Positions 28,227 through 53,825 of a stretch of DNA of 64,000 nucleotides are shown here, in pieces. Positions within the stretch are counted from its first letter, which is position 1. The number at the start of each line of letters is the position of its first letter. Source of the DNA: Candidatus Methylomirabilia bacterium (GTDB lineage: Bacteria; Methylomirabilota; Methylomirabilia; Rokubacteriales; CSP1-6). Location: positions 5,702 through 69,701 of the forward strand of contig JBGOVO010000001.1 in NCBI GenBank assembly GCA_041478145.1. The letters run 5' to 3'. Under the pieces are notes generated by a model that was given only the letters and a program-made list of their open reading frames with translations, was not told the DNA's origin and made no database searches. The position numbers and the translations under genes were made by a program.

Positions 28227-28238
28227 CGGGAGGAGGAT

Positions 28239-38264: not shown

Positions 38265-38368
38265 TACACTGCTTGTCTGGCCAGTCCCTGTATACTCGCC
38301 ATGCGTGTTAACCAATTTGGATGCGGCGGGGAGCGTCCTTTCCGTTGAGCCGGTCGAGGAGGTATTCA

Positions 38369-39445
38369 ATGCGTTGGGGGTTCCTTTTTCTGACAGTCTT
38401 GGTCGTCTCGGTCGTTTTCATGGGGGCAAGTGGCTCGACGCAGCGACTCCCGCTGGGTGACTGCTCGTCCGAACCTGGTCTCGCCGGGCGCTCGGACATC
38501 GTGTTCTGCGAGCCATGGGAGTCGCCGACGTGGTGGCGGCAAGGGTATTTACGCGACGGGCGGGTGGATCGTCCCTTGCCGGCGAGACCGGAAGAGCTCG
38601 TCGACGCCACGCTCGAGGGCAATGGGTGCGTTTCCGGGAAGTGTCTCCGTCTCACGATGAAGCAGTTCGAGACAACGGCCCTGAACCTTTACTGGCCCCT
38701 GAAGAACGCCGGGCTCCGGCCCGAGCAGCTCTATTTGCGGTACTACCTCAAGTTGGGGCCCACTTGGGATAACGAGAACTGCCGCGAGGTGAACGGCAAG
38801 CCGGTGCCAGAGGATGCGGGAGGAAAATTCCCCGGCCTCGCCGATATCCGCAACGACGGCGACCAGGCGGGTCAATGCGGTTATGGCGGAGAGCCCGGTG
38901 ACGGCATCGACTGCTGGTCCCACCGGGCCTACTTCCGCGACTGCTACAGCGGCAGCACCGGGAACCAGATCTGTCGGACGGTTCCGGGAGCGATCACTCG
39001 CTACGGGGGGTACGTCTATTTCGCGGGTCAGGAGGGCTTCACGGGCAACCCGGCCATCTGGGACAGCGATCCCTGGGGCCAGGCGTTTGGACGGGGCGGC
39101 TCGTGCGCCACCGATCCCACGGATCTCTTCTGCCCCGTCGGCCGCAACGCGGGCGTGCTCGTTCGGGAGCGCTGGTACGCGCTTGAGCAGTTCATCAAGA
39201 TGAACACGCCGGGCAAAGCCGACGGCGTCATCCGCGGGTGGGTGGACGGGGTCCTGGCCTATGAAAAGACCAACATGATTTTTCGGCTGCCCGGCCACCA
39301 CGGGCTGCACATCCGGCAGCTCTGGCTCGACGTCTACAAGGGCGGCGTCTATGGAGGATGCCGCGACGGCGAGGTGTGGCTGGACCAGCTCGTGCTCGCC
39401 ACTAACGCGCCGATCGGGCCGATCAAGCGGCCCGTCTCGCGCTGA
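38369..39445 (+). CDS. secreted cysteine-rich protein, possible beta-jelly-roll polysaccharide lyase/hydrolase-like (hypothetical)
   Basis: Signal peptide MRWGFLFLTVLVVSVVFMGASG, preceded by a GGAGG RBS 8 nt upstream of ATG 38369. Many Cys residues, and a C-terminal WYALEQFIKMNTPGKADGVIRGWVDG pattern reminiscent of lectin/lyase jelly rolls. Confidence 0.45.
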   Translation: MRWGFLFLTVLVVSVVFMGASGSTQRLPLGDCSSEPGLAGRSDIVFCEPWESPTWWRQGYLRDGRVDRPLPARPEELVDATLEGNGCVSGKCLRLTMKQFETTALNLYWPLKNAGLRPEQLYLRYYLKLGPTWDNENCREVNGKPVPEDAGGKFPGLADIRNDGDQAGQCGYGGEPGDGIDCWSHRAYFRDCYSGSTGNQICRTVPGAITRYGGYVYFAGQEGFTGNPAIWDSDPWGQAFGRGGSCATDPTDLFCPVGRNAGVLVRERWYALEQFIKMNTPGKADGVIRGWVDGVLAYEKTNMIFRLPGHHGLHIRQLWLDVYKGGVYGGCRDGEVWLDQLVLATNAPIGPIKRPVSR

Positions 39446-39451
39446 GGCTGC

Positions 39452-40498
39452 GTGACGATGGCCGCCGCCAGGGTTCCGGCCCTCCTCTTGCTCGCCACCG
39501 CCGCTCTGCTCCCGGCTGCGCCCCGGGCCGCCGCGGCCTCGGCCCTCGGCGACCTGGCCGCTTCCATGGCTCCCGGGACCTGGGCGGAGCTCAAGACGAA
39601 CGGGCTGACGCCGGCCCTCCTCCAGGTCCCGCGCCCCGTCATGATCTACAACGTGCTGGAGTACCAGAACAGCGGGGTCTGGGATCCTACCTCGCACCAG
39701 GTGCTCTTCGTGGGCGGGCCGCACGACGGCCTTGGGAAGTTCATCACCTACGACGAGCAGACCAATACCTGGCGGCAGGAGCCGGACCCGAAGCCAGAGG
39801 ACATGCTCGCGACCCACGGATACGACCACAACACGATCAATCCCAACACGGGTGAGCTGTACTTCCGTCCTTACGACAGCTCGAACATCTGGAAGTACCA
39901 CATCCCGACGAAGACGTGGAGCCGGCTGACGAGGATCCCGAACGAGGAGTACAACTGCTGTGGCGCCATCGAGTATTTTCCCGAGCGGAACGGCATCCTC
40001 TTCGTCGGCCGGAACGAGATCGAGTTCTACAGCTTCGGCTGGCGGAGCTGGTCCACGCCGTCCGCGACCATCAAGACGGGGCCGTACCATGCCACCGCGG
40101 AGTACAGCCCGGTGGACAAGGTCGTGGTGTTTGGGGGAGGCAGCGGCGTCAAGACCGTGTACGTCATGGACCAAAAGGGAGGCGTCAAGCGCGCCACCGA
40201 CTCCCCGTTCCCGCTCGACAGCGGAGGTCACGCCATTTTCACGGCGGACCCGGCCAGCGGGAAGTTCCTGCTCTTCGCCGAGGACGGGACCTTTCACGTT
40301 TACGATGCGGTCACCGATCGCTGGCAGCTCCAGAGCCAGCGGCCGCCCTTCTTCGACGTCGGACAATACGGCCCGGTGAGCTGCTCCATCGCGATCCCGA
40401 TCAGCACCCACGGCGTGGTGATGGTGCTCACCTACAATGCGCGCCGGCCCACGGTCTTTCTCTACAAGCACGCGGCCGGCCCCGCCGCGCCACGGTAA
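39452..40498 (+). CDS. secreted Kelch-like beta-propeller protein (hypothetical)
   Basis: Ala-rich signal peptide MTMAAARVPALLLLATAALLPAAPRAAAA. Repeated Kelch-like blades (ILFVGRNE, VVVFGGGSG, FLLFAEDGTFHVYD). Confidence 0.45.
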   Translation: MTMAAARVPALLLLATAALLPAAPRAAAASALGDLAASMAPGTWAELKTNGLTPALLQVPRPVMIYNVLEYQNSGVWDPTSHQVLFVGGPHDGLGKFITYDEQTNTWRQEPDPKPEDMLATHGYDHNTINPNTGELYFRPYDSSNIWKYHIPTKTWSRLTRIPNEEYNCCGAIEYFPERNGILFVGRNEIEFYSFGWRSWSTPSATIKTGPYHATAEYSPVDKVVVFGGGSGVKTVYVMDQKGGVKRATDSPFPLDSGGHAIFTADPASGKFLLFAEDGTFHVYDAVTDRWQLQSQRPPFFDVGQYGPVSCSIAIPISTHGVVMVLTYNARRPTVFLYKHAAGPAAPR

Positions 40499-40510
40499 GC
40501 CCGGAGCGTA

Positions 40511-42730
40511 GTGACCACCCTCCTGTCCCTCTTGGCTCCGTTCGTCGTGATTGGTGCCGTGTGGCTTCCTCATCTCGCCCACTACTACGTGGCCAGCCCG
40601 TACGTGCCTCCCGCGCTCCTTGAAGCGAGCCGCGCCACGCCGGACGATTCGCGGCTGCGCGAGCTGGCCAGCTTCGGTCCCGGGTTCGGAGTCGCCCTGC
40701 CCGTCTTTGCGCTCCCGGATGCGGTGCCGGCCGCCAGGAAGCTGCTCGCGGGGGAGGTGGATGTCCCCGGCCTTCGCCGGATGCGCGTCACACTGCCGTT
40801 CGCACCGGCCGACCTGGACAAGGACGACAACGAAGAACCGCTGAGCTTCGCCGGGCTGGTCCTGCCCCAGCTCCTGCTCCGCGCCTACTTCCAGAGCGGG
40901 GAGGACCGCTACCTCTTTGCAGCCCGGGATATGATCGTCGCGTGGGCCGAGTACGAGCGGCACGCATGGCTTCCGAGAGGCTTCCTCTGGAATGATCACG
41001 CGGTCGCGGCCCGGGTCCCTGTCCTCGCCGCCTTCTGGCTCGCCTATCGTCACCACCCAGCCTACGACCCGGCGGTCGGCGCGACACTTCTCACGTTCGT
41101 GGCCCGGAGCGGGTTGCTGCTCGCGCGGCCGGCGCACTTCACGGTCGCAACCAATCACGGTGTCATGCAGAACCTGGCGCTCTGGCACCTGGCCCTCGCG
41201 TTCCCGGAGCTGCCCGAGACCGCCCAGTACCGGAACACCGCGCTGGCCCGGCTCGACGAGGAGATGGGTTTCTACATCGATGACCAGGGCGTGGTTCTCG
41301 AGCATTCAGCAGGCTACCACCGGGCCGGCGTAGAGCTGCTCGCGATGGCCTTGAGATATCTCACCCTCATGGAGATGCCGCTCCCGGAGTCCTGGGTGCA
41401 GAAGTACGAGCGAGCGATCGACTTCTACGCCCAGCTGCGCCGGCCCGACGGCAGCCTTCCGGTCTTTGGCGATACCACTGGCGACCCCACTGACGATGCG
41501 TTTCCGGCCGGGCCGCTAACCACGCGGGTCCGGCCCGACGGCCGCAGCGAGCCGCTCGCGTATCGCGCGAGCTGGCCGGCAGCGCAGGCGCGGTCTCTCT
41601 ATCCGGTGGCCGGCTATTCGTTCTGGTGGAATGGCCTCGGAGCTACACGCGACTCGCGACACGCGAGCCAGACCGTGGTGGCCTGGTCGTATTTTCCCGG
41701 GCACGGCCACAAGCACGCCGACGAGATGAGCGTCCTCCTATGGGCGGCGGGCCAGACGTGGATCACGAACGTGGGCTACTGGCCTTACGGTGTGGCGGGT
41801 CGCTCCCGGGCCGAGTCGTGGAGTGGATCCAACGCGCCGCATCTCGTGACGGAGTCCCCGGCGAGCGCGCGCTCCACCCGGCTGATCTCATCCGCCTGGT
41901 CGGATCGTCTGGCCGCGCTCGACCTCGAGCGGCATCTCGATGCCGGGTACGTCGCCCGACGGCAGATCGTCCAGGTCGATCCGGACCTCTGGGTCATCGT
42001 GGATCATTCATCGGGAGCGCCGACGGAGACTGCCCGGATCCAGTGGACGACCGCGGCCGACGTGAAACTTCGGCGGGTCGGCCCGGTCGGGGTCTACCAT
42101 GTGGAGCCGCCGACAGCCCCGCCCCGCTTGTCGCTGCGTCTGGCCTCGTCATCGGGAGCCACGGTCCGGCAACTCCGGGGCAGCCTTGACCCGTTTGCCG
42201 GGTGGCACGTCGTGAACGACCGGCCGAAGCCGGCGGACACCCTCCTCGTCGATCAGCCAGCGGGGAACTCCTGGACGGTGGCCGTGTGGTGTCTCGATGC
42301 GGTGCCCGCGTCGAACCCCTGCCCGGACGATCCGGTCTCTACCCAATTCTCGGGCGACGAGGACTGGACGGTCACCGTTCCCCGGGCCGGCTCGTCCCTC
42401 ACGGTCGCCCGTGCCGGTCGAGCCGTGCGCGTCAGCCAGGCCGCGGTGGCCACCCCCGCCTCCGTGACGCTCCAGCCCCCCCCAGACGTCGCGGGTGCCA
42501 GAGCCCGGATCCGGGCCGCCTACGAGGCGGGGGTCAGGAAGTATCCACGGTTCCGCGATCTCGGTCCCTACCGCCTGCGCGTGACCTACGCATTGCTGGT
42601 CGTCGCCGGGCTCCAGGAGGTCTTCTTCGCGACGCTGTGCCCGACCGGATACCGGCTCTGGCTCCGACGCGTGGCGATTCTGGCGTGGGTAGCCATCGGG
42701 TTCTGGCTCGTCGCGGTCTACTTCGGTTGA
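40511..42730 (+). CDS. heparinase II/III-like family protein (alginate-lyase-like N-domain), membrane-anchored
   Basis: WSYFPGHGHKHADEMSVLLWAAGQTWITNVGYWPYG is the heparinase II/III signature. N- and C-terminal hydrophobic segments. GTG start. Confidence 0.7.
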   Translation: MTTLLSLLAPFVVIGAVWLPHLAHYYVASPYVPPALLEASRATPDDSRLRELASFGPGFGVALPVFALPDAVPAARKLLAGEVDVPGLRRMRVTLPFAPADLDKDDNEEPLSFAGLVLPQLLLRAYFQSGEDRYLFAARDMIVAWAEYERHAWLPRGFLWNDHAVAARVPVLAAFWLAYRHHPAYDPAVGATLLTFVARSGLLLARPAHFTVATNHGVMQNLALWHLALAFPELPETAQYRNTALARLDEEMGFYIDDQGVVLEHSAGYHRAGVELLAMALRYLTLMEMPLPESWVQKYERAIDFYAQLRRPDGSLPVFGDTTGDPTDDAFPAGPLTTRVRPDGRSEPLAYRASWPAAQARSLYPVAGYSFWWNGLGATRDSRHASQTVVAWSYFPGHGHKHADEMSVLLWAAGQTWITNVGYWPYGVAGRSRAESWSGSNAPHLVTESPASARSTRLISSAWSDRLAALDLERHLDAGYVARRQIVQVDPDLWVIVDHSSGAPTETARIQWTTAADVKLRRVGPVGVYHVEPPTAPPRLSLRLASSSGATVRQLRGSLDPFAGWHVVNDRPKPADTLLVDQPAGNSWTVAVWCLDAVPASNPCPDDPVSTQFSGDEDWTVTVPRAGSSLTVARAGRAVRVSQAAVATPASVTLQPPPDVAGARARIRAAYEAGVRKYPRFRDLGPYRLRVTYALLVVAGLQEVFFATLCPTGYRLWLRRVAILAWVAIGFWLVAVYFG

Positions 42731-42748: not shown

Positions 42749-43543
42749 TCAAGCGGGACAACCAGTGGCCCGGAAGTAGAGGGAATCGGTCAGGATCACC
42801 TTGACGCGAGGATCCCGGGTGAGCTCGCACAGCGTGCCGGGATCATTGACGGTGAACAGGTGGATCGGCACGCGCGCGAACACGAAACCCACCGACCTGT
42901 CATATTGCATGTAATCGAGTGATACGGCGGCAAAGCTCGCTGAGCGGAATCGCATGCCGGCCACGAGGAGATCGCGTACATGCGCCAGGCGGCCCGCCCG
43001 CGTCGGGGTGATCTGGAGCCAGAGGCTGGTTCGCATCCCTAGGCTGGCCACTGCGCCGAGTCTCCTCGGATCCACGGACTCGACGATCGCCCGGTCACGC
43101 ATTCGGGCGGTCTCGAGCTCGGTCCGCAGGCTATCGGTGGCGCGCTGCGCATCCGTGTCGGACAGCGTTCTCAGGTTCCAAAAGTCCAGCCAGACCAGGC
43201 CGTGTGGCGGCACGGCGGCGAGCATTTCGGTCAGATGCAGAACCGCGGGCAGCCTCGCCGCAACCGCCTCTTCCGAGATCACGTAGAGTCCATTCCGCCG
43301 GGCATCGTAGATCACGTCGATCTCGACACCAGGTGCCCCGAGGGCAAAGGCGCGTCGGAGCCCCTGCGGAGAGTTCTCCGGCGCGCCGTCCGAGAGGGCC
43401 CGGTGAGACCAGGCCTTGCTCGGGCCCTGGTAGAAGACCGGCACCGTCGGATTCGGCCGGAGAACGTAGACGAGCGCCCCACCGAAGGCCAGGGGCGCGA
43501 TGGCAGCTGAGATCAGAATCGACCGCGCGGACCTGACCCGCAA
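42749..43543 (-). CDS. glycerophosphodiester phosphodiesterase family protein (membrane-anchored)
   Basis: GP-PDE motif HRALSDGAPENSPQGLRRAFALGAPGVEIDV with an N-terminal TM anchor. Last gene of the minus-strand operon. Confidence 0.7.
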   Translation of the reverse strand: MRVRSARSILISAAIAPLAFGGALVYVLRPNPTVPVFYQGPSKAWSHRALSDGAPENSPQGLRRAFALGAPGVEIDVIYDARRNGLYVISEEAVAARLPAVLHLTEMLAAVPPHGLVWLDFWNLRTLSDTDAQRATDSLRTELETARMRDRAIVESVDPRRLGAVASLGMRTSLWLQITPTRAGRLAHVRDLLVAGMRFRSASFAAVSLDYMQYDRSVGFVFARVPIHLFTVNDPGTLCELTRDPRVKVILTDSLYFRATGCPA

Positions 43544-43574
43544 GCTCTCTCCTGTCAGGCAGCGCCGCGGGCGC

Positions 43575-45461
43575 CTACGGGCGCGGCGGGCTAGAGGGCC
43601 GGGCCGGGCGCATCCGTGTCAGATTGACGGTTCGAACGACGGACGCTTCGTCGTCGACGTCACCGCTCACGAGCCCGGTCGTGTCGCCCGCGACCCGTAT
43701 CGTACCTTCCCGGCTCCCGCACTTGACGAAGATCAGGTCGCGGTCGTCGCCCCGCGCATGCATGATGCAGCGACCGGGCCTGGGCGGGTCGGCCAGGAAG
43801 GCACCCTCCTGCGGGCCCACGCAGTGCCGCTCGCCGAGCAGCGCCTCGATTGAGGCGCCGAAATCACGCTGTTGGAAGTGCTCGTCCAGCACTCGTGGCA
43901 GGGCGATGGCGCGGGTCACGATCACCCCCGGTATGCGCGTGACCGCGGATGCGCCGAAGCGAGCGAACTCGTCCTTCCGGAATGGCTCCATGGCCCGGTG
44001 GTCGCCGGTGATGAACAGCAGCCCGTTCTCGAAGAAGCGCGCGGCCATCAGTCGGTCGTAGAGCGCCCCGATTTGCGCGTCGGTCTCCCGGATCACCTGC
44101 TCCTCGCCGTGGAGCTGAGCGCCATCCGGAGTCATGAACGGGCGATGGCTCCAGTACGTCTGGATGACCGCGAAGTATGGTCGGCTCGCGGGCATCCCGC
44201 GGAGCTCCTCCAGCGCGACCGCGTAGAGCAGACGATCCGGCACCGAGTCGAAGGGCCCGCGCACGGTCTGTCCGTCGAACCGGGGATCGTCATGCCCGAC
44301 GAGCTTCTGGAAGCCCTGTGTCCGCAGCCACGTGTCCTGCCCGAGGAACCCCAGGTCTCCGCCCGCGATGAACTCGGTGCGGTAGCCCTGGTCCGACAGC
44401 ACCCGCGCGAGGGATCGCGAGGTATCCCCGAAGTCGGTGAGTCGCGGCGATCCCCACTTGTTGAACTCCGTCTTTTCCGGGACGAACGGAAACGTCCGCG
44501 TCAACAGCGAGATCAGCCCGCCGATCGTGGTCCACCCGTTGGCGTGGAAGTTGGTGAGCGACGTCTCCCGCTTCGCGATCTCATCGAGCCTCGGGGTCCA
44601 GTCCTCCACGCCCGAGAAGTATCTCGAGTGATACGCCGAGAGGCTCTCGACGATGAGGAGGATCACGTTGACGCGCCGCTGCCGGCTCAGGTGGCACGTC
44701 TCGGGCGGCGGGGGCGTCGCGAGTAGACTGGCGCGGAACGGGTCGGTGAAGTTGCTGTGGATGAAGAAGTTCGCGTTTCGCTCGAGGAAGTTCTCGAAGA
44801 GAGGCTTGTCACCGAACGAGTAGACATACCCTGGAATCGGAACGAAATGGAAGAACGTCAGCAGGAGGGCCGCAAAGACAAGAGACCGGCTCCGAAGAGG
44901 TTGGCGAGCCGGTCGGACGAAGAACAGGTAGCAGGTGTACAACGCCATCCAGACCACGACCCCGCCGACTGCGAGCTTGACGACGAGCTTCCAGGCCGGG
45001 ATGCCGAAGGCGATCAACCAGCCGGTGCGCAGCAAGGAAAAGATCGAACCAAGCTCCGCCGAGAAGGTGACGATGTCGCTGACGTAGAGGCGCGTGGCGA
45101 AGAAATAGTAGGCGAAGACGTCCGCGGTGTACAAGAGGACGATCGCGAGGCAGGTGACCATAGAAAGCCGGGACACGATGCCGGCGGCGCGGCTGGACGA
45201 GTGGCGCGCCACCGCCAGGGCCGCCGCGTAGAGGACCAGGAGCAGGGCGAGGATGGTCGCGTCGTGCTGGATGATGGCCAGGAGGATCCATCCGGTCGCG
45301 GCCGGTCGCATGAGCTTCACCTTGAAGAGGAGCGTCGCCATCACGAAGATCGCGAGGGCGAGCTCTGGACGGCGGACACGCAAGACAGAGAGGAGCCCCA
45401 CTTCATGGACAGTCGTGCGTTCCGTAGAGGGTTCGGAGGTCGCATCGCGCATCGGGTCCAT
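43575..45461 (-). CDS. LtaS/MdoB-like phosphoglycerol (or phosphoethanolamine) transferase, alkaline-phosphatase/sulfatase superfamily membrane protein
   Basis: Five N-terminal TM helices followed by a sulfatase-fold domain (NVILLIVESLSAYHSRYFSG ... FITGDHRAMEP). Confidence 0.7.
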   Translation of the reverse strand: MDPMRDATSEPSTERTTVHEVGLLSVLRVRRPELALAIFVMATLLFKVKLMRPAATGWILLAIIQHDATILALLLVLYAAALAVARHSSSRAAGIVSRLSMVTCLAIVLLYTADVFAYYFFATRLYVSDIVTFSAELGSIFSLLRTGWLIAFGIPAWKLVVKLAVGGVVVWMALYTCYLFFVRPARQPLRSRSLVFAALLLTFFHFVPIPGYVYSFGDKPLFENFLERNANFFIHSNFTDPFRASLLATPPPPETCHLSRQRRVNVILLIVESLSAYHSRYFSGVEDWTPRLDEIAKRETSLTNFHANGWTTIGGLISLLTRTFPFVPEKTEFNKWGSPRLTDFGDTSRSLARVLSDQGYRTEFIAGGDLGFLGQDTWLRTQGFQKLVGHDDPRFDGQTVRGPFDSVPDRLLYAVALEELRGMPASRPYFAVIQTYWSHRPFMTPDGAQLHGEEQVIRETDAQIGALYDRLMAARFFENGLLFITGDHRAMEPFRKDEFARFGASAVTRIPGVIVTRAIALPRVLDEHFQQRDFGASIEALLGERHCVGPQEGAFLADPPRPGRCIMHARGDDRDLIFVKCGSREGTIRVAGDTTGLVSGDVDDEASVVRTVNLTRMRPARPSSPPRP

Positions 45462-45479: not shown

Positions 45480-46421
45480 CTACTTCGGAAGAGCGGCTCG
45501 GCCGAAGATCGCGCTCAGCTCCGCGTGCAGCTCCTGGAGCAGCACGGTGCGTGCGCCGACTGCGCGTCGCGAGATCCGGCCGAGCAGCGCGAGCTTCTGT
45601 CGCGGGCTCAGGGGGCTGCGGCGGATCGCCCGCAGGTAGCCGGCGTAGTGCCGCCAGTAGTAGAACTGGGCGCGCCCCTTCTGTGTCGGCACCATGTAGG
45701 CGACCTTCTCTTCCAGCGACCCCAGGCCGCTGAAGGCCTCGCCGTGCATACGCCGGTAGAAGAGCCGCTCGTCGATCTCGTGGAATTGGCCATGCAGCGC
45801 GAGCTCCGCGACCAGCACCATGTCGGAGCCGAGGTAGCGCTCCATCAGCCCCGTCGTGATGAGCGCGTCCAGCCGCACCACGCCCTGCATCATGTTCACG
45901 AGGCCGAGCCGTCGGAGCACGGTCACGAAGCGCTCGCCCGGGTCCGGGTCCCGGACGTCCAGATCGTCGTCGTAGTCGCGGATCCGGCGGCCCTGCTCGT
46001 CGATCAGGGTCGTCCGGCCGAAGCAGGCGACCACCTCACAGTGAGCGTCCAGGACCCCGACACACTTCTCGACCAGGGTCAGGTCACACAGGTCGTCGGC
46101 ATTGGCGAGTTTGAAGTACGTGCCGGTCGAGAGGGTGATGACCCGGTTGAAGTTCCACGCCGAGCCGGCGTTGGTCTCGGCGCGATGGTAGCGGATGCGT
46201 GGGTCCATCGCCGCGTAGTCGCGGCAGATCTCGGGCGTCTCGTCGGTGGACGCGTTGTCGGAGATAACGATCTCGCTGTCCCGCCAGGTCTGGCCGACGA
46301 TGCAGTCGAGCGTCTCGCGGAGGAACGGCGCCCCGTTGAACACCGGGATCCCGATGCTCACCCGGGGACGCCGCTCCCGAGCCGCGTCAGCTGACATCCG
46401 GCGCCTCTCGCCTCCGCCCAC
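45480..46421 (-). CDS. glycosyltransferase family 2
   Basis: VSIGIPVFNGAPFLRETLDCIVGQT...VISDNASTDET: GT-A fold. Abuts the upstream stop codon. Confidence 0.75.
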   Translation of the reverse strand: MGGGERRRMSADAARERRPRVSIGIPVFNGAPFLRETLDCIVGQTWRDSEIVISDNASTDETPEICRDYAAMDPRIRYHRAETNAGSAWNFNRVITLSTGTYFKLANADDLCDLTLVEKCVGVLDAHCEVVACFGRTTLIDEQGRRIRDYDDDLDVRDPDPGERFVTVLRRLGLVNMMQGVVRLDALITTGLMERYLGSDMVLVAELALHGQFHEIDERLFYRRMHGEAFSGLGSLEEKVAYMVPTQKGRAQFYYWRHYAGYLRAIRRSPLSPRQKLALLGRISRRAVGARTVLLQELHAELSAIFGRAALPK

Positions 46422-47729
46422 CTAGTTACGCTGCCGCATGACCGGCTTCACCGGGCGGCCCAGCAGGTACTTGCCGATGCCTTCCTCGAGGGCCCGCCGG
46501 TACACGACGAGCGCCTCGCCCACGGCCTCCACCGTGCGATCGATGTCCTGGTCGGAGTGCGAGAAGCTCACCACCATGGACGGCATGATGAACCCGCGCT
46601 TCAGCATCTCCTGGAGGAACAACGTCCGGTGGGCCTGCGAGGGCTGCTTGTTCTCGTCGCGCGCCGCATAGACGAGGTTGCAAGGCATGCCGAGCACCTG
46701 GAAGTGCTCGGTCAAGCGGAGGCTGGCGATCACCTGCCCGAGTCCATCGCGCAGCCGCTGGCCCTGATGCCAGAGGTATTCGACGACCTTCTCCCGCTGG
46801 TAGATCCGCATGACCTCGATGGCGGCGGCCAGGCTGTGCGTCTCCGCGCCGTGCGTGGTGGAGAGCAGGAACACCCGGTCCCGGTCGTGCTGGAGACCGC
46901 CCAGGGCCATGATCTCCCGCTTGCCGACCATCGCCGAGACCGAGAAGCCGTTCCCCATCGCTTTCCCGAAGGAGGCCAAGTCGGGAACGACTCCGTAGTA
47001 CTCCTGGCCACCTCCCAGGTGCCAGCGGAAGCCGGTGATCATCTCGTCGAGCACGAACAGCGCCCCGTGCCGGGCGCACAGCCGCTGGACTTCGGTGAGG
47101 AAGCCGTCCACCGGCTCCATCGCGGTGGCCGGCTCGAGCATCACGCAGGCGATGCGCCCCGGGTACTGGGCGAACAGGGCCTCGATCCCCGCGCGATCGT
47201 TGTAGTGGAACTTCACGGTGAGCGCCTTCACCGCGTCCGGAATGCCCGCCGAGACCGGCGTGGTCCCGATGAACCAGTCCTCGACGGAGAAGAAGGGGTG
47301 CTCCGCGCAGACCGCCACCATGTCCCGGCCGGTGTAGGCGCGGGAGAGCTTCACCGCCGCCGTCGTCACGTCCGAGCCGTTCTTGGCGAACTTCACCATC
47401 TCGGCGCCGTGGATAAGCCCGAGGAGCTCCTCCGCGCATTCGAGCTCGATGGTCGCGGGGCGGGTGAAGTTGCTGCCGAGCAGCATTTGCCGCTGCGCCG
47501 CCTCGACCACCGGCCCGTAGGCGTGGCCGAGCGTCACCGCCCGGAGCCCCATGCCGTACTCGACGAGCTCGTTGCCGTCCGCGTCCCAGACGTGGCTGCC
47601 CGCTCCCCGCACGATGTAGGGCGCCGAGTGCTCGGGATACTGGTCGTCCCCCTTGGCGTAGGTGTGGCTGCCCCCGGGAATGACGGCGTGGAACCTCGAC
47701 TGCAACGCTTGCGATTTGGCGAAGTTCAT
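46422..47729 (-). CDS. class III PLP aminotransferase (glutamate-1-semialdehyde aminomutase-like)
   Basis: AVIPGGSHTY...YIVRGAGSHVWDADGNELVEYGMG...FVLDEMITGFRW...ASFGKAMGNGF: GSA-AM/AT-III signature including the PLP lysine. Confidence 0.8.
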   Translation of the reverse strand: MNFAKSQALQSRFHAVIPGGSHTYAKGDDQYPEHSAPYIVRGAGSHVWDADGNELVEYGMGLRAVTLGHAYGPVVEAAQRQMLLGSNFTRPATIELECAEELLGLIHGAEMVKFAKNGSDVTTAAVKLSRAYTGRDMVAVCAEHPFFSVEDWFIGTTPVSAGIPDAVKALTVKFHYNDRAGIEALFAQYPGRIACVMLEPATAMEPVDGFLTEVQRLCARHGALFVLDEMITGFRWHLGGGQEYYGVVPDLASFGKAMGNGFSVSAMVGKREIMALGGLQHDRDRVFLLSTTHGAETHSLAAAIEVMRIYQREKVVEYLWHQGQRLRDGLGQVIASLRLTEHFQVLGMPCNLVYAARDENKQPSQAHRTLFLQEMLKRGFIMPSMVVSFSHSDQDIDRTVEAVGEALVVYRRALEEGIGKYLLGRPVKPVMRQRN

Positions 47730-47748
47730 ACGCGTTTGGCCCCCGATG

Positions 47749-49095
47749 TCATGCGGTCGTGGTGCGCGGATGCTTCTCTCCGAACAGGGTGTCGAACTGC
47801 GACTCCAGCGCCCGCCGGCAGCGCCCGGCCTCCTCCTCGAGCCGGGCCGCGATCCGGGCTCGCGCGGACTCGAGCGCCTCGAAGCGCTCGGCGAGCGATC
47901 GGCTATCCAGGCCGGCCGCGGGCAGCAGGTAGGCGTCCTGGCCGGCCCGCTGCATCAGCTCGTCGATCTTGCTCTGGTACGATAGCCCCACCACCGGCTT
48001 GCGGAGCAGGAACGAGAGGAGGATGCCGTGGAACCTCCCGCTCACGACCAGGTCGAGCGTCGAGATCGTGGCCACGAGGTCGTCCACCGTTTCCACCGTC
48101 CGCTCCAGCACCCGCCCCGGCAGCCCCGGCCCGCGGGCGGCCAGCCGCGTCTTCAGGTCCGCGATCACGCGCGGGTCCGACCGCAGCTGCGTCGGGAAGA
48201 GCACCACCGAGTACCCGCGGGCGAGCAGCCACTCCGTGAAGCCCGCCAGGGTGTCCAGGTAGCCCTCGTACCGCGCGCGCTTCCCGCCCGGCCAGTACCG
48301 CGCGTCCTCGTGGGGAAACGGGTTGAGCCCGACCACCAGCGGCGCGCTCCCGGGCCGGGACGCGGCTTCCGCCTTCTCCACCCGCAGCGCCCACGCGGGA
48401 TCCGCATAGACCGCGCCCGCCACGCCGAGGGTCGCGATCAGCGCGCGCGAGCCCTCGTCGCGGAATGAGCGGTGGTCGCCGAGCCTCAGGGCGGCTCCGA
48501 CGAAGAGCCGGGCGAGGCGCGAGTCGAGCGGGCCCGCGCCCACGCTCACGAACAGCACCCGAGCCCCGGCCAGCCGCGCCATCACCGTCCACTTCAGGAC
48601 GAGGTACGGGAACGCCCACGTCCCGCCGAAATCGTCGGAGAGCTGGCCGCCGCCGCCCACCACGAGGCAATCGATCCCGCGCAGGGCCCTCACCGTCCGC
48701 GTGACGAAGGCCGCCTCCCCCACCAGACCCCGAGTTCCCGTCCAGAGGGCTCGCAGCCCACGCAGGAGCCGGCCCACGACCGGAGCGGCCCGCAGCCGCG
48801 CCTTGAGGCGGTCGAGAGCCGTGACCAGCCGGCCGCGCTGACTTGGGGCGGCGCTGACGACCTCGCGGCCGGATATCCTGGCGGCCTTCCGGGTCTGGCG
48901 CTGGGCGGGCAGCGCGATCACGCCGTGCCGGGCCTCCGTGTCCTCGGGGTCGAACGAGATCGCATAGAGCCGGGCCCCTTCACGCCGATCCCGGACCTGC
49001 TGCAGGATCGCCGCGAGCGTGGCTTCGTCCCCGAGGTTGCGGTTCCCGTAGTTGCTGAGGACCGCGATCGCCCCGACCCTGCCCCGGCGGTTCAC
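47749..49095 (-). CDS. polysaccharide pyruvyl transferase family protein (CsaB/WcaK-like)
   Basis: GNRNLGDEATLAAIL N-terminal motif and a C-terminal VVSGRFHGILLSF. Confidence 0.75.
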   Translation of the reverse strand: MNRRGRVGAIAVLSNYGNRNLGDEATLAAILQQVRDRREGARLYAISFDPEDTEARHGVIALPAQRQTRKAARISGREVVSAAPSQRGRLVTALDRLKARLRAAPVVGRLLRGLRALWTGTRGLVGEAAFVTRTVRALRGIDCLVVGGGGQLSDDFGGTWAFPYLVLKWTVMARLAGARVLFVSVGAGPLDSRLARLFVGAALRLGDHRSFRDEGSRALIATLGVAGAVYADPAWALRVEKAEAASRPGSAPLVVGLNPFPHEDARYWPGGKRARYEGYLDTLAGFTEWLLARGYSVVLFPTQLRSDPRVIADLKTRLAARGPGLPGRVLERTVETVDDLVATISTLDLVVSGRFHGILLSFLLRKPVVGLSYQSKIDELMQRAGQDAYLLPAAGLDSRSLAERFEALESARARIAARLEEEAGRCRRALESQFDTLFGEKHPRTTTA

Positions 49096-49102
49096 GAGCG
49101 CT

Positions 49103-49759
49103 TCAGCCCAGGATCAGCTTCCGGCCGTAGAAGCCTTCCGCGTATCCGTCCGGCGCGTTCGACTCCATGCCCCGCAACCTCAGGATCGCCTGGAAGGTCT
49201 CCTCCGAGAACCAGCGCCGGTCCGCCTGGCTCGGGAAGCTCCGGATGAGGTTCTCGATCTTGCGTCGGCAGAGAGCCCGGTCCAGGTGGACGAAGACGTT
49301 CGGCGACCCGAGGTCTCCGTCGAACTTGGGGATCTCGTACTCGAGGATCAGGTGGTCGCGAAAGGTATTCCACGTCAGCTCCGACACGAGCCGGTGGTCC
49401 TGGTGCAGGTCGGCGCGATAGTGCGTGAACACCATGTCCGGAGCCGCGATCTTCTTCAGCTCCTCGAAGGCCTCCTTGACCTCCGCGCCGTGGTACGGAA
49501 GGAACCCGTCGCGGAAGCTCTTGATCACGATGTGCTTTGCCTTCACGCCGGCCAGGATCGCCTCCGCGCTCGCGCGGGCCTCCCGGGCTCGCAGGTCGTT
49601 GGAGCTCCACACCACCCAGGTCACCGTCAGCCCCGGGTGCTCGTCCGCCAGCTTGGCGATCGTCCCGCCGCAGCCGATCTCGATGTCGTCGCAGTGAGCC
49701 CCCAGGCACAGGACGTGCCCGAGCCGCGGTTTCGTCCAGTCGAGTCCGATCGTGAGCAC
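49103..49759 (-). CDS. PIG-L/LmbE-family N-deacetylase
   Basis: VLCLGAHCDDIEIGCGGT and HQDHRLV zinc-binding motifs. Confidence 0.8.
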   Translation of the reverse strand: MLTIGLDWTKPRLGHVLCLGAHCDDIEIGCGGTIAKLADEHPGLTVTWVVWSSNDLRAREARASAEAILAGVKAKHIVIKSFRDGFLPYHGAEVKEAFEELKKIAAPDMVFTHYRADLHQDHRLVSELTWNTFRDHLILEYEIPKFDGDLGSPNVFVHLDRALCRRKIENLIRSFPSQADRRWFSEETFQAILRLRGMESNAPDGYAEGFYGRKLILG

Positions 49760-49771
49760 GCCGCCTCCCGC

Positions 49772-50644
49772 TCAGTCGGCGCGGCCGTCCAGCCGGCTCA
49801 TGACCTGCATCCGCTGCTCGTCGCCGTTGCCGTGGTGCGGGACCGGCTCCCCCGGAGCTCCCCTTCCGCCCGCCTTCCACACTTCCCACGGCCGCTCGCC
49901 CCGCGCGTGCATCTCGTCGAACAGCTGCTTGTCCTTCAGCGTGTCCATGCAGCCCCAGAAGCCCTCGTGCCGGTAGGCCATGAGCTGGTCACCCGCGATG
50001 AGCCGGTGGAACGGCTCCTGGACCAGCTCCTCGCCCTCGCGCATGTAGTCGAACACCTCGCGCCGGAACGCGAAGAACCCGCCGTTGATCCACAGCCCCG
50101 ACTTGGCCACGTGCTTGATGTCCTTCACGGCCCCTTCCGGGGAGAGCGAGACGAGATGGAAACTGTAGTTGGGCCGCACGCAGACAAAGCTGCCGACCTT
50201 GCCCTGGCTCAGGAAGTCGTCGAGATACCAGTCCAGCGGCAGGTCGGAGAGGCCGTCCGTATAGTTGGCGAGGAACACCTCCTCGCCGTCGAGGTACCGC
50301 TCCACCGCCTTGAGGCGCTGCCCGATGTTGGAGTGCTGTCCCGTGTCGGCGAACGTGATCGTCCAGTCCGCGATGTCACGCCCGTAGAGCCGTACGTCCT
50401 TGCCGCCCTTCGACAGCACGAAGTCGTTGGACAGGCACTCGTCGTAATTAAGGAAGTAATTCTTGACCATGTCGCCGCGGTATCCGAGGCAGAGAATGAA
50501 GTCGGTATGGCCGAAGTGGGCGTAGTACTTCATCACGTGCCAGATGATCGGCCGCGGCCCGATATTAACCATGGGCTTCGGGATGGTGTCGGAGTATTCC
50601 CGGAGCCGCGTCCCCAGTCCTCCGCAGAACAAGACGACCTTCAC
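49772..50644 (-). CDS. rfbF: glucose-1-phosphate cytidylyltransferase
   Basis: VKVVLFCGGLGTRLREYSDTIPKPMVNIGPRPIIWHVMKYY. A GTG at 50644 lies 6 nt downstream of GAGGGGG. The longer N-terminal extension in the track ORF overlaps the upstream gene in another frame and was rejected. Confidence 0.85.
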   Translation of the reverse strand: MKVVLFCGGLGTRLREYSDTIPKPMVNIGPRPIIWHVMKYYAHFGHTDFILCLGYRGDMVKNYFLNYDECLSNDFVLSKGGKDVRLYGRDIADWTITFADTGQHSNIGQRLKAVERYLDGEEVFLANYTDGLSDLPLDWYLDDFLSQGKVGSFVCVRPNYSFHLVSLSPEGAVKDIKHVAKSGLWINGGFFAFRREVFDYMREGEELVQEPFHRLIAGDQLMAYRHEGFWGCMDTLKDKQLFDEMHARGERPWEVWKAGGRGAPGEPVPHHGNGDEQRMQVMSRLDGRAD

Positions 50645-50693
50645 GATGGCCACCCCCTCTTCGCCCGGCAGGTGAAAGTTCCGATGCCGTCGG

Positions 50694-52010
50694 TCATTTC
50701 GCGAGCTCCTTGAGTAGGCCGTTGGCCTCGAGCAGATCGGCCGCTCGGCGGATCGCCCCCAGCTCGCGGTCCGAGCGCCGCGAGATGTCCAGCAGGGAGT
50801 GCTCCCCGTCGGACAGGTTGAGCACCCAGAGCAGGGCCAGCTCGTCCACCCCGTCCTGCGCGTAACCGCCCATCGACCGGTACAGGCCGCGCTTGCCGAG
50901 CTGCGGCTCACCCTTCGGGTTCTGGTTCAGGTAGCGCTGGTTGCCTTCGAGAGCGTCCAGGATCGCCAGGACCGTCTCGAGCGACTCCGCGAGCGACGCC
51001 GCCGAGACCAGGCCCGGGTTGTCGGCCGAGGTGTGGTACTCGGGGAAGCGTCCGTGCGGCGTGCGCATGAAGCAGCCGACCGGCAGGTTGAAGCCGGGCG
51101 AGCAGAACTGCCGCTCGTCGTACCCGTAGGGCGTGAACTCCTCAATCCGATGCGCGACACCCCGCTCCTGGAGCACGTGGGCGACCACGCGGTCCACCTC
51201 CGCGTCCCCGCGGCGACTCTTCTTGTAGGTGAAGGCCCCGCGGTCCCCCACGCACGCGAGCACGAGGCCGTGCTTGATCCGGTCCACCGTGGCCTCGTTG
51301 AGGGCCAGCCACGTGATAGAGCCGATGGTCCCTGGGATGAAGAGGAAGCGGTACGAGTACCGGAGCGCGCACTCGCGCAGCCGGCTGGCCAGCATCATCG
51401 CGAGCACGACACCCGAGAGGTTGTCGTTGGCGAGGGACGGATGGCAGACGTGGCAGGAGATCAGGACCTCATCCGACGTCGCTCCCGGCAGGTAGCACTC
51501 CCCGTAGGTGAGGGCGCCCGGCTCCAGGGTGGAGTCGATGCAGACCTCGTACTGGTCCTCGGGGAGGGTGGTCATCTGGCGGTGGCTGAGGCAGAACCCC
51601 CAGGTCTCGCGGTAGTACGACGTCCGGTACGGCACCCAGTCCGGCGCGGCCGGGAGGGTGTGCAGGTGGGGCACCAGCTCCTGCAGCGACATCCGCGCCC
51701 GGACAGGCGAGCTGTAGTTGACCACGTGAAGGTTCGAGCGACGGAAGTCGACCACCCGCTCTCCGCTCGAGCTGGCGATGTAGGCCTCCCGGATGTTCCA
51801 CTCCTTCGGCACTGCCCAGTCGAGCACCTGCGTTCCCGAAGGCACCTCGCGCAGCGCCAGCGGCGCGCGCTCGGCGACGTAGCGGAGCGTCTGCCGGAGC
51901 CCGTTGCCGGTGATGCTCCGGCACAGCGGGTAGAGGTCTTCCACGGCGCGGTACATGGCCGCGCCGGCCGCGCCCCGGTCGAGCCCCGCCCGCACGTCTG
52001 CGATCCGCAT
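50694..52010 (-). CDS. DUF4910/DUF2172-type aminopeptidase-like protein with C-terminal winged-helix region (polysaccharide-locus associated, function unknown)
   Basis: LYPLCRSITGNG N-terminal motif, an M28-like central fold, and a C-terminal wHTH-like tail. The start at MRIADV (ATG 52010) has a GAGG RBS and lies 10 nt after the RfbC-like stop. Confidence 0.55.
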   Translation of the reverse strand: MRIADVRAGLDRGAAGAAMYRAVEDLYPLCRSITGNGLRQTLRYVAERAPLALREVPSGTQVLDWAVPKEWNIREAYIASSSGERVVDFRRSNLHVVNYSSPVRARMSLQELVPHLHTLPAAPDWVPYRTSYYRETWGFCLSHRQMTTLPEDQYEVCIDSTLEPGALTYGECYLPGATSDEVLISCHVCHPSLANDNLSGVVLAMMLASRLRECALRYSYRFLFIPGTIGSITWLALNEATVDRIKHGLVLACVGDRGAFTYKKSRRGDAEVDRVVAHVLQERGVAHRIEEFTPYGYDERQFCSPGFNLPVGCFMRTPHGRFPEYHTSADNPGLVSAASLAESLETVLAILDALEGNQRYLNQNPKGEPQLGKRGLYRSMGGYAQDGVDELALLWVLNLSDGEHSLLDISRRSDRELGAIRRAADLLEANGLLKELAK

Positions 52011-52020
52011 GCCCGTCGCC

Positions 52021-52551
52021 TCAGGCCGGGAAGTCCGGATAGCTCCGGTCATGGTCGGAGATGGTCCGCTCGGCATCCGGCCACCGGATGCCGAAGACCG
52101 GATCGTCCCACCTCACCCCACGGGCGTGATCCGGCGCGTAGAACTCGGACATCTGATAGAAAACCTCGGTCTCGTCCTCGAGCGTCTGGAAACCGTGCGC
52201 GACGCCCTCAGGCACGTAGAGCATGCGGCGGCTGTCCGCGTCGAGCACCACCGCCTCGTGACGCCGGAAGGCCGGCGAGTCGGGGCGGAGGTCGATGATC
52301 ACGTCATGAATCGCTCCGCGCGTGCACCGGATGAGCTTGGCCTCCCGGTGTGGCACCGCCTGGTAGTGCATGCCGCGGAGGGTGCCCCGGCACTTGTTGA
52401 AGGACACGTTGCACTGCACGAGGCGGGGGTTGAGCCCCCGCTCCTGGAAGTCGCGCTCGCACCAGCTCCGCGCGAAGAAGCCCCGCGCGTCCTCGAGCCG
52501 CTCGAGGTCCACGATCCACGCGCCCGGGAGCGCGGTCTCGGTGAAGATCAC
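52021..52551 (-). CDS. NDP-4-keto-6-deoxyhexose 3,5-epimerase, cupin fold (RfbC-like)
   Basis: 176 aa covering only the C-terminal third of the 655-aa track ORF (the rest is off-frame junk). Motifs RGFFARSW, RGMHYQ and GVAHGFQTLED. GTG start overlaps the methyltransferase stop (GTGA). Confidence 0.8.
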   Translation of the reverse strand: MIFTETALPGAWIVDLERLEDARGFFARSWCERDFQERGLNPRLVQCNVSFNKCRGTLRGMHYQAVPHREAKLIRCTRGAIHDVIIDLRPDSPAFRRHEAVVLDADSRRMLYVPEGVAHGFQTLEDETEVFYQMSEFYAPDHARGVRWDDPVFGIRWPDAERTISDHDRSYPDFPA

Positions 52552-53786: not shown

Positions 53787-53825
53787 CGCTCCTCTGACGG
53801 GTATGGGTGCGTGGGCGCGCTCGCG

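Follow-up and report, generated by a model that had tools for sequence, protein, structure and literature searches.

Outside the cytoplasm, where ATP is lacking, the known route by which bacteria attach charged groups to glycans is the transfer of head groups from membrane lipids, and examples are LTA, OPG, pEtN-cellulose, the streptococcal glycerol-phosphate (GroP) decoration and the pEtN of lipid A. A paper on the EPS of Actinoplanes has a mention of "LTAs" only. In LtaS and LtaP, the lipoteichoic acid synthase and primase of Firmicutes, five transmembrane (TM) helices precede an alkaline-phosphatase-fold domain outside the cytoplasm, in which Thr is the nucleophile and the metal site is of the E/D/H kind. 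BcsG, EptA and OpgE are membrane-anchored proteins of the same superfamily, by which the head group of a phospholipid is transferred onto a glycan or onto lipid A, and BcsG is a precedent for the transfer of phosphoethanolamine (pEtN) to a glycan (bioRxiv 10.64898/2026.09.23.753746). OpgB (MdoB) of E. coli is a Gram-negative inner-membrane enzyme transferring phosphoglycerol derived from phosphatidylglycerol to a periplasmic glycan, and both OpgB and OpgE are precedents for head-group transfer (PMC3818809). GacH/SccH, an LtaS-family protein encoded in a polysaccharide gene cluster, adds single GroP groups to rhamnopolysaccharide extracellularly, with phosphatidylglycerol as the likely donor (PMC9574508).

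Proteins with a GDPD fold act on related compounds. The lysophosphatidylglycerol phospholipase D of S. aureus (LpgD, PDB 8ghh/8ghi) is metal dependent and consists of one N-terminal TM helix and a GDPD barrel. It has the usual catalytic residues of GDPDs, of which His93 is required, the Ala mutant being inactive, and the equivalent His is reported to be essential in GlpQ (PMC10404611). The GlpQ teichoicase and the GDPD domains of phage K gp155, which are soluble or virion proteins with complete catalytic sites, cleave glycerol-phosphate from envelope polymers. LtaS-type products are sn-glycerol-1-phosphate, whereas characterised GDPD teichoicases, to which GlpQ belongs, act on sn-glycerol-3-phosphoryl esters (PMC7086022); the same specificity holds for gp155. 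No GDPD partner has been described for GacH/SccH, nor a pairing of LpgD with an LtaS-like gene, and no description of an LtaS-like/GDPD pair was found in the literature. We also know of no GDPD partner for OpgB. In the present study, such a pair, here called genes A and B, was analysed in a window of 64,000 nucleotides from a Candidatus Methylomirabilia bacterium (contig JBGOVO010000001.1).

Gene A at the end of an EPS operon

Both genes are co-directional ORFs on the minus strand and together occupy 42749–45461, exactly where a sequence-only reading had placed them. Gene A (43575–45461) and gene B (42749–43543) are separated by a spacer of 31 nt (43544–43574), in which AGGAGA serves as the ribosome-binding site of B. 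Nothing resembling a terminator was found between them, and a promoter/terminator scan gave nothing informative. GC3, at 0.86 in A and 0.79 in B, is of coding type. Since 18 nt lie between the end of B and the stop codon of a convergent heparinase II/III-like gene, the pair stands at the end of its operon, as had been proposed. A gap of 18 nt separates A from the glycosyltransferase (GT2) gene before it, and the upstream part of the operon (45480–54875, minus strand), with tight gene junctions throughout, encodes according to Pfam and NCBIfam this GT2, a GSA-aminomutase-like aminotransferase, a polysaccharide pyruvyl transferase, a PIG-L deacetylase, an NTP transferase, a DUF4910/DUF2172 protein, a C-methyltransferase and an epimerase/dehydratase. 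The earlier description of a Wzx/Wzy locus agrees with the presence of Polysacc_synt_3 (21756–23330) and Wzy_C (11975–13603), and the locus is, more precisely, an EPS locus of the XrtA/PEP-CTERM type.

The product of A has 628 aa when read from the first ATG and 625 aa when read from 45452. The latter start is likelier, because the spacing from the AGGAGG box is only 1 nt for the first ATG and about 10 nt for the second, and because the 625-aa form is used by database gene calls (P0007). Residues 265–542 match the Pfam Sulfatase domain (PF00884, E 2e-21). Five hydrophobic segments, all before residue 211, were found by hydropathy, and they agree with helices 32–54, 60–87, 91–121, 156–182 and 191–206 of the AF2 model (pLDDT 87.7). 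The protein is thus composed of five TM helices (about 32–206), an alkaline-phosphatase-fold domain (about 255–545), which the positive charges preceding TM1 would place in the periplasm, and a C-terminal beta-rich extension (545–616). E272, T311, H439, D487 and H488 are invariant among 31 homologues, down to 30% identity, and these residues are predicted to form the catalytic set, with T311 as the nucleophile (the register allows T311 or T312). In the AF2 model, T311, which belongs to the local motif NGWTTIGG, caps helix 312–321.

In profile searches against PDB, A matched 3lxq (8e-27), LtaP (3e-16) and LtaS (3e-12), and the same three were the top matches by Foldseek (E 1e-20 to 1e-14), together with PbgA/YejM over the full length. 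The closest relatives are therefore Vibrio VP1736 (PDB 3lxq), LtaP/LtaS and OpgB, and A is an LtaS/OpgB-type membrane transferase in the COG1368-like branch of the alkaline phosphatase superfamily. This bears out the earlier view of a five-TM, sulfatase-fold transferase. A sulfatase identity is ruled out, since the C/S-x-P-x-R motif is absent, the Thr is invariant and a TM bundle is present. Membership among the EptA/BcsG-type pEtN transferases is likewise ruled out, because their N-terminal Pfam domains were absent at E <= 0.01, and BcsG, EptA and OpgE are not among the top fold matches of A.

A is not an orthologue of OpgB: its best NCBIfam match, phosphoglycerol transferase I (PRK12363), reached 50.5 bits where the equivalog cut-off is 572. 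A also lies in an EPS operon rather than in an opg locus. Identity to LtaS and LtaP is only 15–17%; the host of A has a Gram-negative-type envelope, A has no sign of polymerisation, and no Pfam LtaS_N domain was detected at E <= 0.01. The residues contacting glycerol-phosphate in S. aureus LtaS (H347, W354, R356 and H416) were compared by way of the profile alignment with LtaS of B. subtilis (2w8d), which is of moderate reliability: A has A366, L373 and Q375 opposite the first three, and only the last is kept, as H439. By this alignment, A does not show the conserved GroP-binding residues by which LtaS sensu stricto, the poly-GroP synthase, is recognised. The best functional analogy is GacH/SccH, which is likened to A by function and not by sequence and which acts on a Gram-positive cell-wall polymer.

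Gene B, a membrane-anchored protein with a GDPD barrel

B encodes 264 aa from a TTG start after the AGGAGA box, and the call in databases is identical (P0001). A single hydrophobic N-terminal helix (residues 9–27) was found by hydropathy and in the AF2 model (pLDDT 83.4, pTM 0.82), the remainder of which is a GDPD-type TIM barrel. The Pfam GDPD (PF03009) match, at 17.5 bits, does not reach the gathering threshold of 23.6 and covers residues 47–77 only; the GDPD fold is clear from the predicted structure and from the profile. The best Foldseek matches in PDB are all GDPDs (E about 1e-9, TM 0.6–0.67), and nearly all of the top 40 or more are of GDPD type. GlpQ and gp155 are among the top structural matches, LpgD was found at E about 2e-7, and the profile of the B family reached PDB GDPDs at 6e-14. 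B is thus a type-II membrane-anchored periplasmic protein with a GDPD fold, and neither B nor A had a match in PLSDB plasmids by tblastn.

The metal ligands and the first His-Arg of the HRG motif are retained (H47, R48, E74, D76 and D120). Two other catalytic residues are replaced: the second His, of the HD motif, is Ser90 at the position of His93 in LpgD, and the phosphate-binding Lys of the E/D-x-K motif is Trp122. Both replacements are invariant in an alignment of the 12 sequences of the subclade, in which Ser90 is followed by E91 and E92 in a strictly conserved Ser-Glu-Glu and no further invariant His is present. The proposal of a glycerophosphodiesterase with a TM anchor is therefore supported for the anchor and the fold and is not supported as regards a canonical hydrolase. 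Judging from these residues, B of the window's subclade is most likely not a conventional glycerophosphodiesterase, and it could catalyse by another route using the Ser-Glu-Glu.

Linkage of the two genes and the proposed module

Among 12 members of the B family examined on unrelated contigs, 11 adjoin a gene with a PF00884 sulfatase domain, and most of these genes are LtaS-like in length. The two reading frames overlap by 4 nt in L091 and L100, by 1 nt in L093 and L098 and by 29 nt in L097. The arrangement is variable, both gene orders and convergent pairs being found, and several pairs lie inside Wzx/Wzy/glycosyltransferase loci. This linkage exceeds chance, and the two genes are functionally linked, as had been suggested from the single pair, and far more strongly than that pair alone could show. 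In unrelated lineages (L007, L010–12, L015, L098–L100), the module lies beside genes for Wzx, Wzy, GT2, GT4 and pyruvyl transferase. In Acidobacteria (L010–L012), A homologues have a pyruvyl transferase gene on one side and a GT2 or acyltransferase gene on the other, and in a planctomycete (L015) the homologue lies inside the same set of amino- and C-methyl-sugar genes. Seen from A, a B gene is present in one of 79 genome loci with an A homologue, and four of the 79 have a canonical GDPD instead. Since most A homologues are without B, B should be regarded as an optional accessory.

We consider it about an even chance that A and B form a module on the periplasmic face, which decorates a glycan, probably the EPS of the locus, with a phospho-head group derived from a phospholipid. 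A would be held in the inner membrane by its five helices and, with Thr311 and the metal site (E272, D487 and H488), would detach the polar phospho-alcohol head group of a membrane phospholipid and free diacylglycerol. The head group would then be passed to a sugar hydroxyl. We infer a lipid donor because the gene immediately preceding A in L003 encodes a YegS/BmrU lipid (diacylglycerol-type) kinase, and pssA is the next gene downstream in L014 and L007. A glycan acceptor is suggested because A is inside an EPS operon, after GT2, and has homologues in polysaccharide loci; the acceptor is most likely the EPS of the XrtA/Wzx/Wzy locus. B would be tethered beside A by its one helix, with the metal triad and the first His-Arg serving for glycerophosphodiester binding. 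With the general-base His changed to Ser and the Lys to Trp in the window's clade, B is most likely a partner with a special role beside A: it may edit, with a chemistry or specificity that has changed, or it may be a subunit that binds and hands over without hydrolysis. Ancestral, catalytically complete members of the B family would be true hydrolytic "erasers" or trimmers. The head group would most probably be sn-glycerol-1-phosphate from phosphatidylglycerol, and phosphoethanolamine is also possible. It is not readable from the sequence, because the GroP contacts of LtaS are not conserved in A and close alphaproteobacterial homologues of A adjoin a phosphatidylserine synthase gene (pssA). 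For these same reasons, the glycerol-phosphate named in the sequence-only reading is to be taken as an assumption.

Alternative roles and the B family

In the first alternative, phosphatidylglycerol is the donor of the sn-glycerol-1-phosphate that A attaches to the EPS, and B is an active glycerophosphodiesterase trimming or removing these groups or recycling released glycerophosphodiesters. The retained fold, metal ligands and first His-Arg are consistent with this, and E91 and E92 beside Ser90 could serve as the base. Most members of the B family keep the full GDPD catalytic set (His in 123 and Lys in 134 of the best 150 representatives) and are equally linked to LtaS-like genes. In addition, canonical GDPD genes (PF03009) stand directly upstream of distant A homologues in L029, L031, L060 and L074, and the two that were scanned gave E values of 2.5e-32 (L060) and 1.8e-45 (L074). 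However, B has Ser90 in place of the His essential in LpgD and GlpQ and Trp122 in place of the Lys, and no other invariant His could act instead. Furthermore, the ester specificity of the teichoicase GlpQ is for the enantiomer opposite to LtaS-type products (PMC7086022). Since two catalytic residues are replaced, B is probably not a simple trimming enzyme, and we regard this alternative as rather unlikely. The trimming or recycling of glycerol-phosphate proposed earlier is not supported for B as it was stated, and the earlier reading of GroP addition and trimming is, as a whole, only partly supported.

It is also conceivable, and in our view quite unlikely, that the pair is a module for membrane-lipid or envelope homeostasis, in which A acts on periplasmic glucans, LPS, lipid A or another acceptor, B acts on lipids like LpgD, and the position in the operon is incidental. 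Among the genome hits, the one closest to A (75% identity, in a Ca. Deferrimicrobiaceae MAG, L009) lies outside any polysaccharide locus, with neither B nor polysaccharide genes nearby, so acceptors may differ across the A family. The alphaproteobacterial homologues beside pssA, and the homologue in Brucella tritici, which is between TetR and YkuD genes, point in the same direction. LpgD, which acts on lyso-PG, shares the architecture of a single TM helix and a GDPD domain; PbgA/YejM, the full-length structural neighbour of A, is lipid/LPS-related; and periplasmic glucans are modified by OpgB and CgmB. Against this, A and B share one operon with eight genes for sugar modification and transfer, with gaps of only 18 and 31 nt, and the module recurs by polysaccharide genes in the unrelated lineages listed above.

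To a third alternative we give little probability: an identical architecture in which A moves phosphoethanolamine or another non-glycerol head group (such as phosphoserine or phosphocholine) and a cationic head group bound by B accounts for its change from Lys to Trp. Trp is a common binder of quaternary or primary ammonium groups. A pssA gene (TIGR00473, 118–120 bits against a cut-off of 107) comes immediately after A, or after A and B, in L014 and L007, the GroP-contact residues are not conserved, and pEtN on glycans has precedents in BcsG and OpgE. On the other hand, the characterised members nearest A in sequence or fold (LtaS, LtaP and OpgB) all use phosphatidylglycerol, the N-terminal Pfam domains specific for EptA and BcsG are absent, and the adjacency of pssA may be housekeeping synteny.

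Returning to the preferred reading of a glycan-decorating module, a dedicated GDPD-like partner with a membrane tether, which nearly always stands beside such a transferase and often in Gram-negative Wzx/Wzy loci, points to an unrecognised second step of removal, editing or hand-over. It also predicts phosphate-bearing, teichoic-acid-like substituents on the exosortase-type EPS of environmental bacteria. A wider extension, which is speculative and improbable, is that the TM-anchored B family is an undescribed obligate partner of LtaS-like transferases, forming with them a widespread "writer plus editor" in the periplasm for phosphate decorations, derived from phospholipids, on Wzx/Wzy polysaccharides, and that the partner in the Ser/Trp subclade is neofunctionalised. 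Within this extension, Ser90 might possibly be a covalent nucleophile, or cleavage might take place on the glycerol side and leave a bare sugar-phosphate; B might alternatively be a non-catalytic specificity subunit of the transferase. If true, a bare sugar-phosphate would mean ATP-independent phosphorylation of an extracytoplasmic glycan with a membrane lipid as phosphate donor.

B had at one point seemed an orphan, since a word-indexed search gave six relatives only, and an exhaustive HMM search showed this to be an artefact of sensitivity. The latter search collected 615 cluster representatives at 50% identity, which make up a sizeable and essentially unannotated protein family. Neither of two variants examined with hhalign carries a recognisable LtaS-like TM module, the 479-aa P0266 giving a non-significant result (E 0.019, probability 2.5%) and P0277 nothing. 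A metagenome scan with patterns of the B subclade returned only unrelated GDPDs among the matches listed. Ser and Trp occur, always both together, in 10 of the best 150 representatives, which are exactly the window's subclade, and also in two further members, P0005 and P0006, from outside that set. This subclade is a natural experiment, a GDPD barrel without its general base. A protein search with the family profile gave metagenomic sequences only, with no cluster from UniRef or nr among those listed, and three of its 27 clusters bear a name, two being called "hypothetical protein" and one "glycerophosphoryl diester phosphodiesterase".

Gene pair and its exopolysaccharide locus

The pair consists of A (43575-45461, minus strand), a membrane transferase gene of the LtaS/OpgB type, and B (42749-43543, minus strand), a gene for a membrane-anchored protein with a GDPD fold. 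Both open reading frames named in a sequence-only reading exist exactly at the places given; they run in the same direction and have a coding-type third-position GC (0.86 and 0.79, respectively). They are separated by a spacer of 31 nt, and an AGGAGA box precedes the TTG start of B. The AGGAGG box of A stands only 1 nt upstream of the first ATG and about 10 nt upstream of the next, and database gene calls use a 625-aa form (P0007), so that 45452 is a likelier start of A than the first ATG; residue numbers for A refer to the 628-aa form throughout.

By Pfam and NCBIfam matches, the minus-strand operon that ends in this pair spans 54875 to 42749 and encodes, in order, epimerase/dehydratase, C-methyltransferase, DUF4910/DUF2172, NTP transferase, PIG-L deacetylase, pyruvyl transferase, GSA-aminomutase-like aminotransferase, GT2, A and B. 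Since 18 nt separate the GT2 gene from A, and another 18 nt separate the end of B from the stop codon of a heparinase II/III-like gene that converges on it, the pair closes the operon, as had been proposed. Upstream of A, an unusual sugar-tailoring set (46422-54875, minus) includes the aminotransferase (NF004856, 720 bits), the M28-like DUF4910/DUF2172 protein and the C-methyltransferase (Methyltransf_13/14), with the NTP transferase, deacetylase and epimerase. Three plus-strand genes converging on the pair (38312-42730) encode a PL14-like lyase, a Kelch-type beta-propeller with a signal peptide and the heparinase II/III-like protein, whose end seems hydrophobic and possibly membrane-spanning; processing or breakdown of the same exopolysaccharide (EPS) is a possible role for them.

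Judged by its accessory gene set, the whole window (1-64000) is a single EPS locus of the XrtA/PEP-CTERM (exosortase A) type, with further example segments at 28227-32201 and 59695-63998. The Wzx/Wzy context claimed earlier is borne out by a Wzx-type flippase (21756-23330) and a Wzy_C/DUF5935 protein (11975-13603), and many GT4 and GT2 genes and three Asn-synthase-like amidotransferases are also present. Of the hallmark XrtA/PEP-CTERM accessory genes, an acyl-CoA ligase (TIGR03098, 625 bits) and a chain-length determinant (TIGR03007) score above cut-off; the decarboxylase (TIGR03099), ATPase (TIGR03015) and priming transferase (TIGR03013) are named by best matches that stay below it. FemAB-like GNATs and a sigma-54 response regulator likewise occur in the locus. 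A 540-aa open reading frame (17719-19341, plus) has coding-type GC3 and no Pfam match, and a NosD/beta-helix protein (55159-56436, minus) adjoins a short GGDEF-domain frame and an SCO4226-like/coiled-coil protein (55159-57650).

The transferase and its GDPD-like partner

The sole Pfam match of A is Sulfatase (E 2e-21, residues 265-542), and its top NCBIfam match, phosphoglycerol transferase I, reaches 50 bits against an equivalog cut-off of 572. A family profile built from 31 sequences was compared with solved structures, and matched Vibrio VP1736 (3lxq, 8e-27), the Listeria LTA primase LtaP (3e-16) and LtaS of Bacillus, Listeria and Staphylococcus (1e-9 to 3e-12), with true sulfatases ranking behind or interleaved. 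The AF2 model (pLDDT 87.7, pTM 0.86) has long helices at 32-54, 60-87, 91-121, 156-182 and 191-206, coinciding with five hydropathy segments, followed by an alpha/beta domain and a beta-rich C-terminal extension. Its Foldseek leaders are 3lxq, LtaP and LtaS, and full-length PbgA/YejM is aligned over about 640-680 columns. E272, T311, H439, D487 and H488 are invariant in homologues down to 30% identity. T311 caps the N-terminus of helix 312-321 in the model, which is the usual nucleophile site in the alkaline-phosphatase/sulfatase-fold superfamily. Assignment as a sulfatase was rejected, as the local motif is NGWTTIGG and not the sulfatase C/S-x-P-x-R. These profile and fold matches, the five-helix bundle, the invariant residues and the motif mark A as an LtaS/OpgB-type membrane transferase with its catalytic equipment in place; its earlier description as a five-TM enzyme of this type is correct.

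The Pfam GDPD match of B is under threshold (17.5 bits vs 23.6). An AF2 model from a six-sequence alignment (pLDDT 83.4, pTM 0.82) consists of an N-terminal helix (2-27) and a TIM barrel. Nearly all Foldseek neighbours are of GDPD type, and every one of the best is a GDPD (E about 1e-9, TM 0.6-0.67); B. subtilis GlpQ, a phage K gp155 domain and S. aureus LpgD are among them. Residues 9-27 form a long hydrophobic stretch, preceded by Arg residues, that looks like a signal anchor and would place the barrel on the periplasmic side, as the catalytic domain of A. The TM-anchored GDPD fold that the first description implied is thus supported.

B is not an orphan: a word-indexed search gave six relatives only, and an exhaustive HMM search of 1.84 billion representatives gave 615 clusters at E <= 1e-3 (246 at <= 1e-10, 67 at <= 1e-30). 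Most members are 240-290 aa long with the same N-terminal helix, and searches reporting names found only four named members, three as "hypothetical protein" and one as "glycerophosphoryl diester phosphodiesterase". In a comparison of the family profile with solved structures, GDPDs match at 6e-14 by way of HRG...EN...GxExD...V-x-HD. Among the 150 best of the 615 representatives the active site is overwhelmingly canonical (first His 125, Arg 121, E74 146, D76 145, second His 123, D120 145, Lys 134). B of the window and its nearest relatives, 10 of the 150, have Ser (Ser90 in B) in place of the second His and Trp (Trp122 in B) in place of the phosphate-binding Lys, always both together; P0005 and P0006 are two further such proteins outside this set. 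This subclade has the invariant patterns V-x-S-E-E and W-L-D-F-W, and its alignment contains no further invariant His. Purifying selection acts on the replacement pattern, which argues for changed function and against decay. Side branches also exist: P0156-P0158, P0173 and P0185 (379-392 aa) have an N-terminus lengthened by several helices and carry Arg in place of the second His, and the one looked up (L094, 4554-5726) lies among housekeeping genes with no adjoining sulfatase gene.

The earlier proposal was that A adds glycerol-phosphate to the EPS and B trims or recycles it. The transferase and the linkage stand; trimming by B meets two further obstacles. B retains what metal and phosphodiester binding would need, and active trimming accords with its GDPD fold. 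The H93A mutant of LpgD, equivalent to the swapped second His, is deficient in LPG hydrolysis, and the same His is reported essential in GlpQ (PMC10404611), so B lacks the canonical general base, together with one phosphate ligand. Furthermore, the substrates of GlpQ-type enzymes are sn-glycerol-3-phosphoryl esters, and those of LtaS type make sn-glycerol-1-phosphate (PMC7086022). We therefore consider an active trimming enzyme improbable.

Genomic association of the two families

Neighbourhoods of 12 B-family members were examined: five of the Ser/Trp subclade, six with canonical His/Lys, and P0157, N-terminally extended with Arg at the second-His site. A PF00884 (sulfatase-domain) gene, with a product of 450-646 aa, adjoins 11 of them, in agreement with the pairing claimed earlier; the sole exception is P0157 (390 aa). 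The order is A then B in the window (L001), L003, L004, L007, L091 and L100 (4-nt overlaps in the last two), B then A in L093, L098 (1-nt overlaps) and L097 (29-nt overlap), and convergent in L095 and L099. The partner transferases are 63% to 25% identical to A; that of L100 has a weak LtaS_N match, and that of L095 gave no BLAST match to A at 1e-3. The pairs of L007, L098, L099 and L100 sit amid Wzx, Wzy, GT2, GT4, deacetylase or pyruvyl transferase genes.

Conversely, B was found in only one of 79 genome loci with an A homologue, and B-type proteins thus appear dependent on an LtaS-like neighbour while the transferases can do without B. In the Ca. Deferrimicrobiaceae MAG with the nearest genome homologue of A (75% identity), both B and polysaccharide genes are absent from its surroundings. 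An ordinary GDPD gene lies immediately upstream of the A homologue in four of the 79 (L029/L031 6610-7932, L060 1247-2227, L074 6875-7780), confirmed by PF03009 in L060 (E 2.5e-32) and L074 (E 1.8e-45) and by jackhmmer in all four. This is a second, independent association of GDPD and LtaS-like genes. These A homologues are about 30% identical to A and come from Desulfobacteraceae, Thiobacillaceae and Burkholderiales MAGs; their GDPDs include a lipoprotein, a secreted protein that carries an additional N-terminal domain, and a protein of cytoplasmic appearance.

In wastewater-type metagenome contigs (L004 2723-7461, also L005 and L006) the pair is flanked by IS481 and IS66 transposase genes and a fragmented aminotransferase, which suggests that it moves as a unit. 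P0266 and P0277 of the B family (479-492 aa) have a long multi-TM N-terminal region; the faint likeness of P0266 to TM3-5 of A (motif D..YF..R...D.F) was not significant by hhalign (E 0.019, probability 2.5%). If true, a fusion between a GDPD domain and a membrane module of LtaS type would be informative.

Proposed mechanism, head group and acceptor

In the mechanism to which we give about an even chance, A would move a phospho-alcohol head group, most probably phosphoglycerol, from an outer-leaflet phospholipid onto Thr311 and then hand it to a sugar of nascent or exported EPS, with B tethered beside it and engaging the same glycerophosphodiester. The canonical majority of the B family would probably be true phosphodiesterases that remove or edit the decoration, and the Ser/Trp subclade, having lost the general base, would be either an editing enzyme of altered chemistry or a partner that does not hydrolyse. 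Head-group transfer has characterised precedents: GacH decorates streptococcal rhamnan (PMC9574508), OpgB and OpgE modify periplasmic glucans (PMC3818809), and BcsG modifies cellulose (bioRxiv 10.64898/2026.09.23.753746). Such transferases in polysaccharide loci are already known, and A alone fits this class. What appear new are the near-obligate placement of genes for a large, unannotated family of TM-anchored GDPD-like proteins beside genes for LtaS-like transferases, the occurrence of the A-B module in Wzx/Wzy and exosortase EPS loci of Gram-negative type, and a conserved GDPD-like subclade without the catalytic His and Lys; our literature search found no description of such a pair. We regard the A-B result as solid and testable, and its function we infer.

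The head group used by A cannot be read from its sequence. H347, W354 and R356, glycerol-phosphate contacts of S. aureus LtaS, stand opposite A366, L373 and Q375 in a profile alignment of moderate quality to B. subtilis LtaS. A CDP-alcohol phosphatidyltransferase passing the pssA equivalog cut-off (TIGR00473, 118-120 bits vs 107) is encoded directly downstream of the A homologue in Mesorhizobium sp. KR2-14 (L014, 9862-10641) and of the A-B pair in a related alphaproteobacterial MAG (L007, 3920-4717). This adjacency ties the module to phospholipid metabolism, and the head group may come from PS or PE and not PG. A non-glycerol group such as phosphoethanolamine, compatible with the main architecture, is unlikely in our estimate, slightly more so than active trimming. 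Tim44-like genes come next after pssA in both loci, so the region is syntenic.

Equally unlikely is a role in envelope or lipid homeostasis apart from EPS with B acting as does LpgD, a fold neighbour of B. In the metagenomic contig L003, a YegS/BmrU-family lipid kinase gene (DAGK_cat, 1468-2334) lies immediately upstream of the pair and fits recycling of diacylglycerol freed from a phospholipid donor. A homologues of Acidobacteria lie between pyruvyl transferase and GT2 or acyltransferase genes, and that of a Planctomycetaceae MAG (L015, 5689-17762) lies inside the C-methyl/amino-sugar gene set of the window, sharing GT2, C-methyltransferase, DUF4910 and aminotransferase; these neighbourhoods support a glycan acceptor for A.
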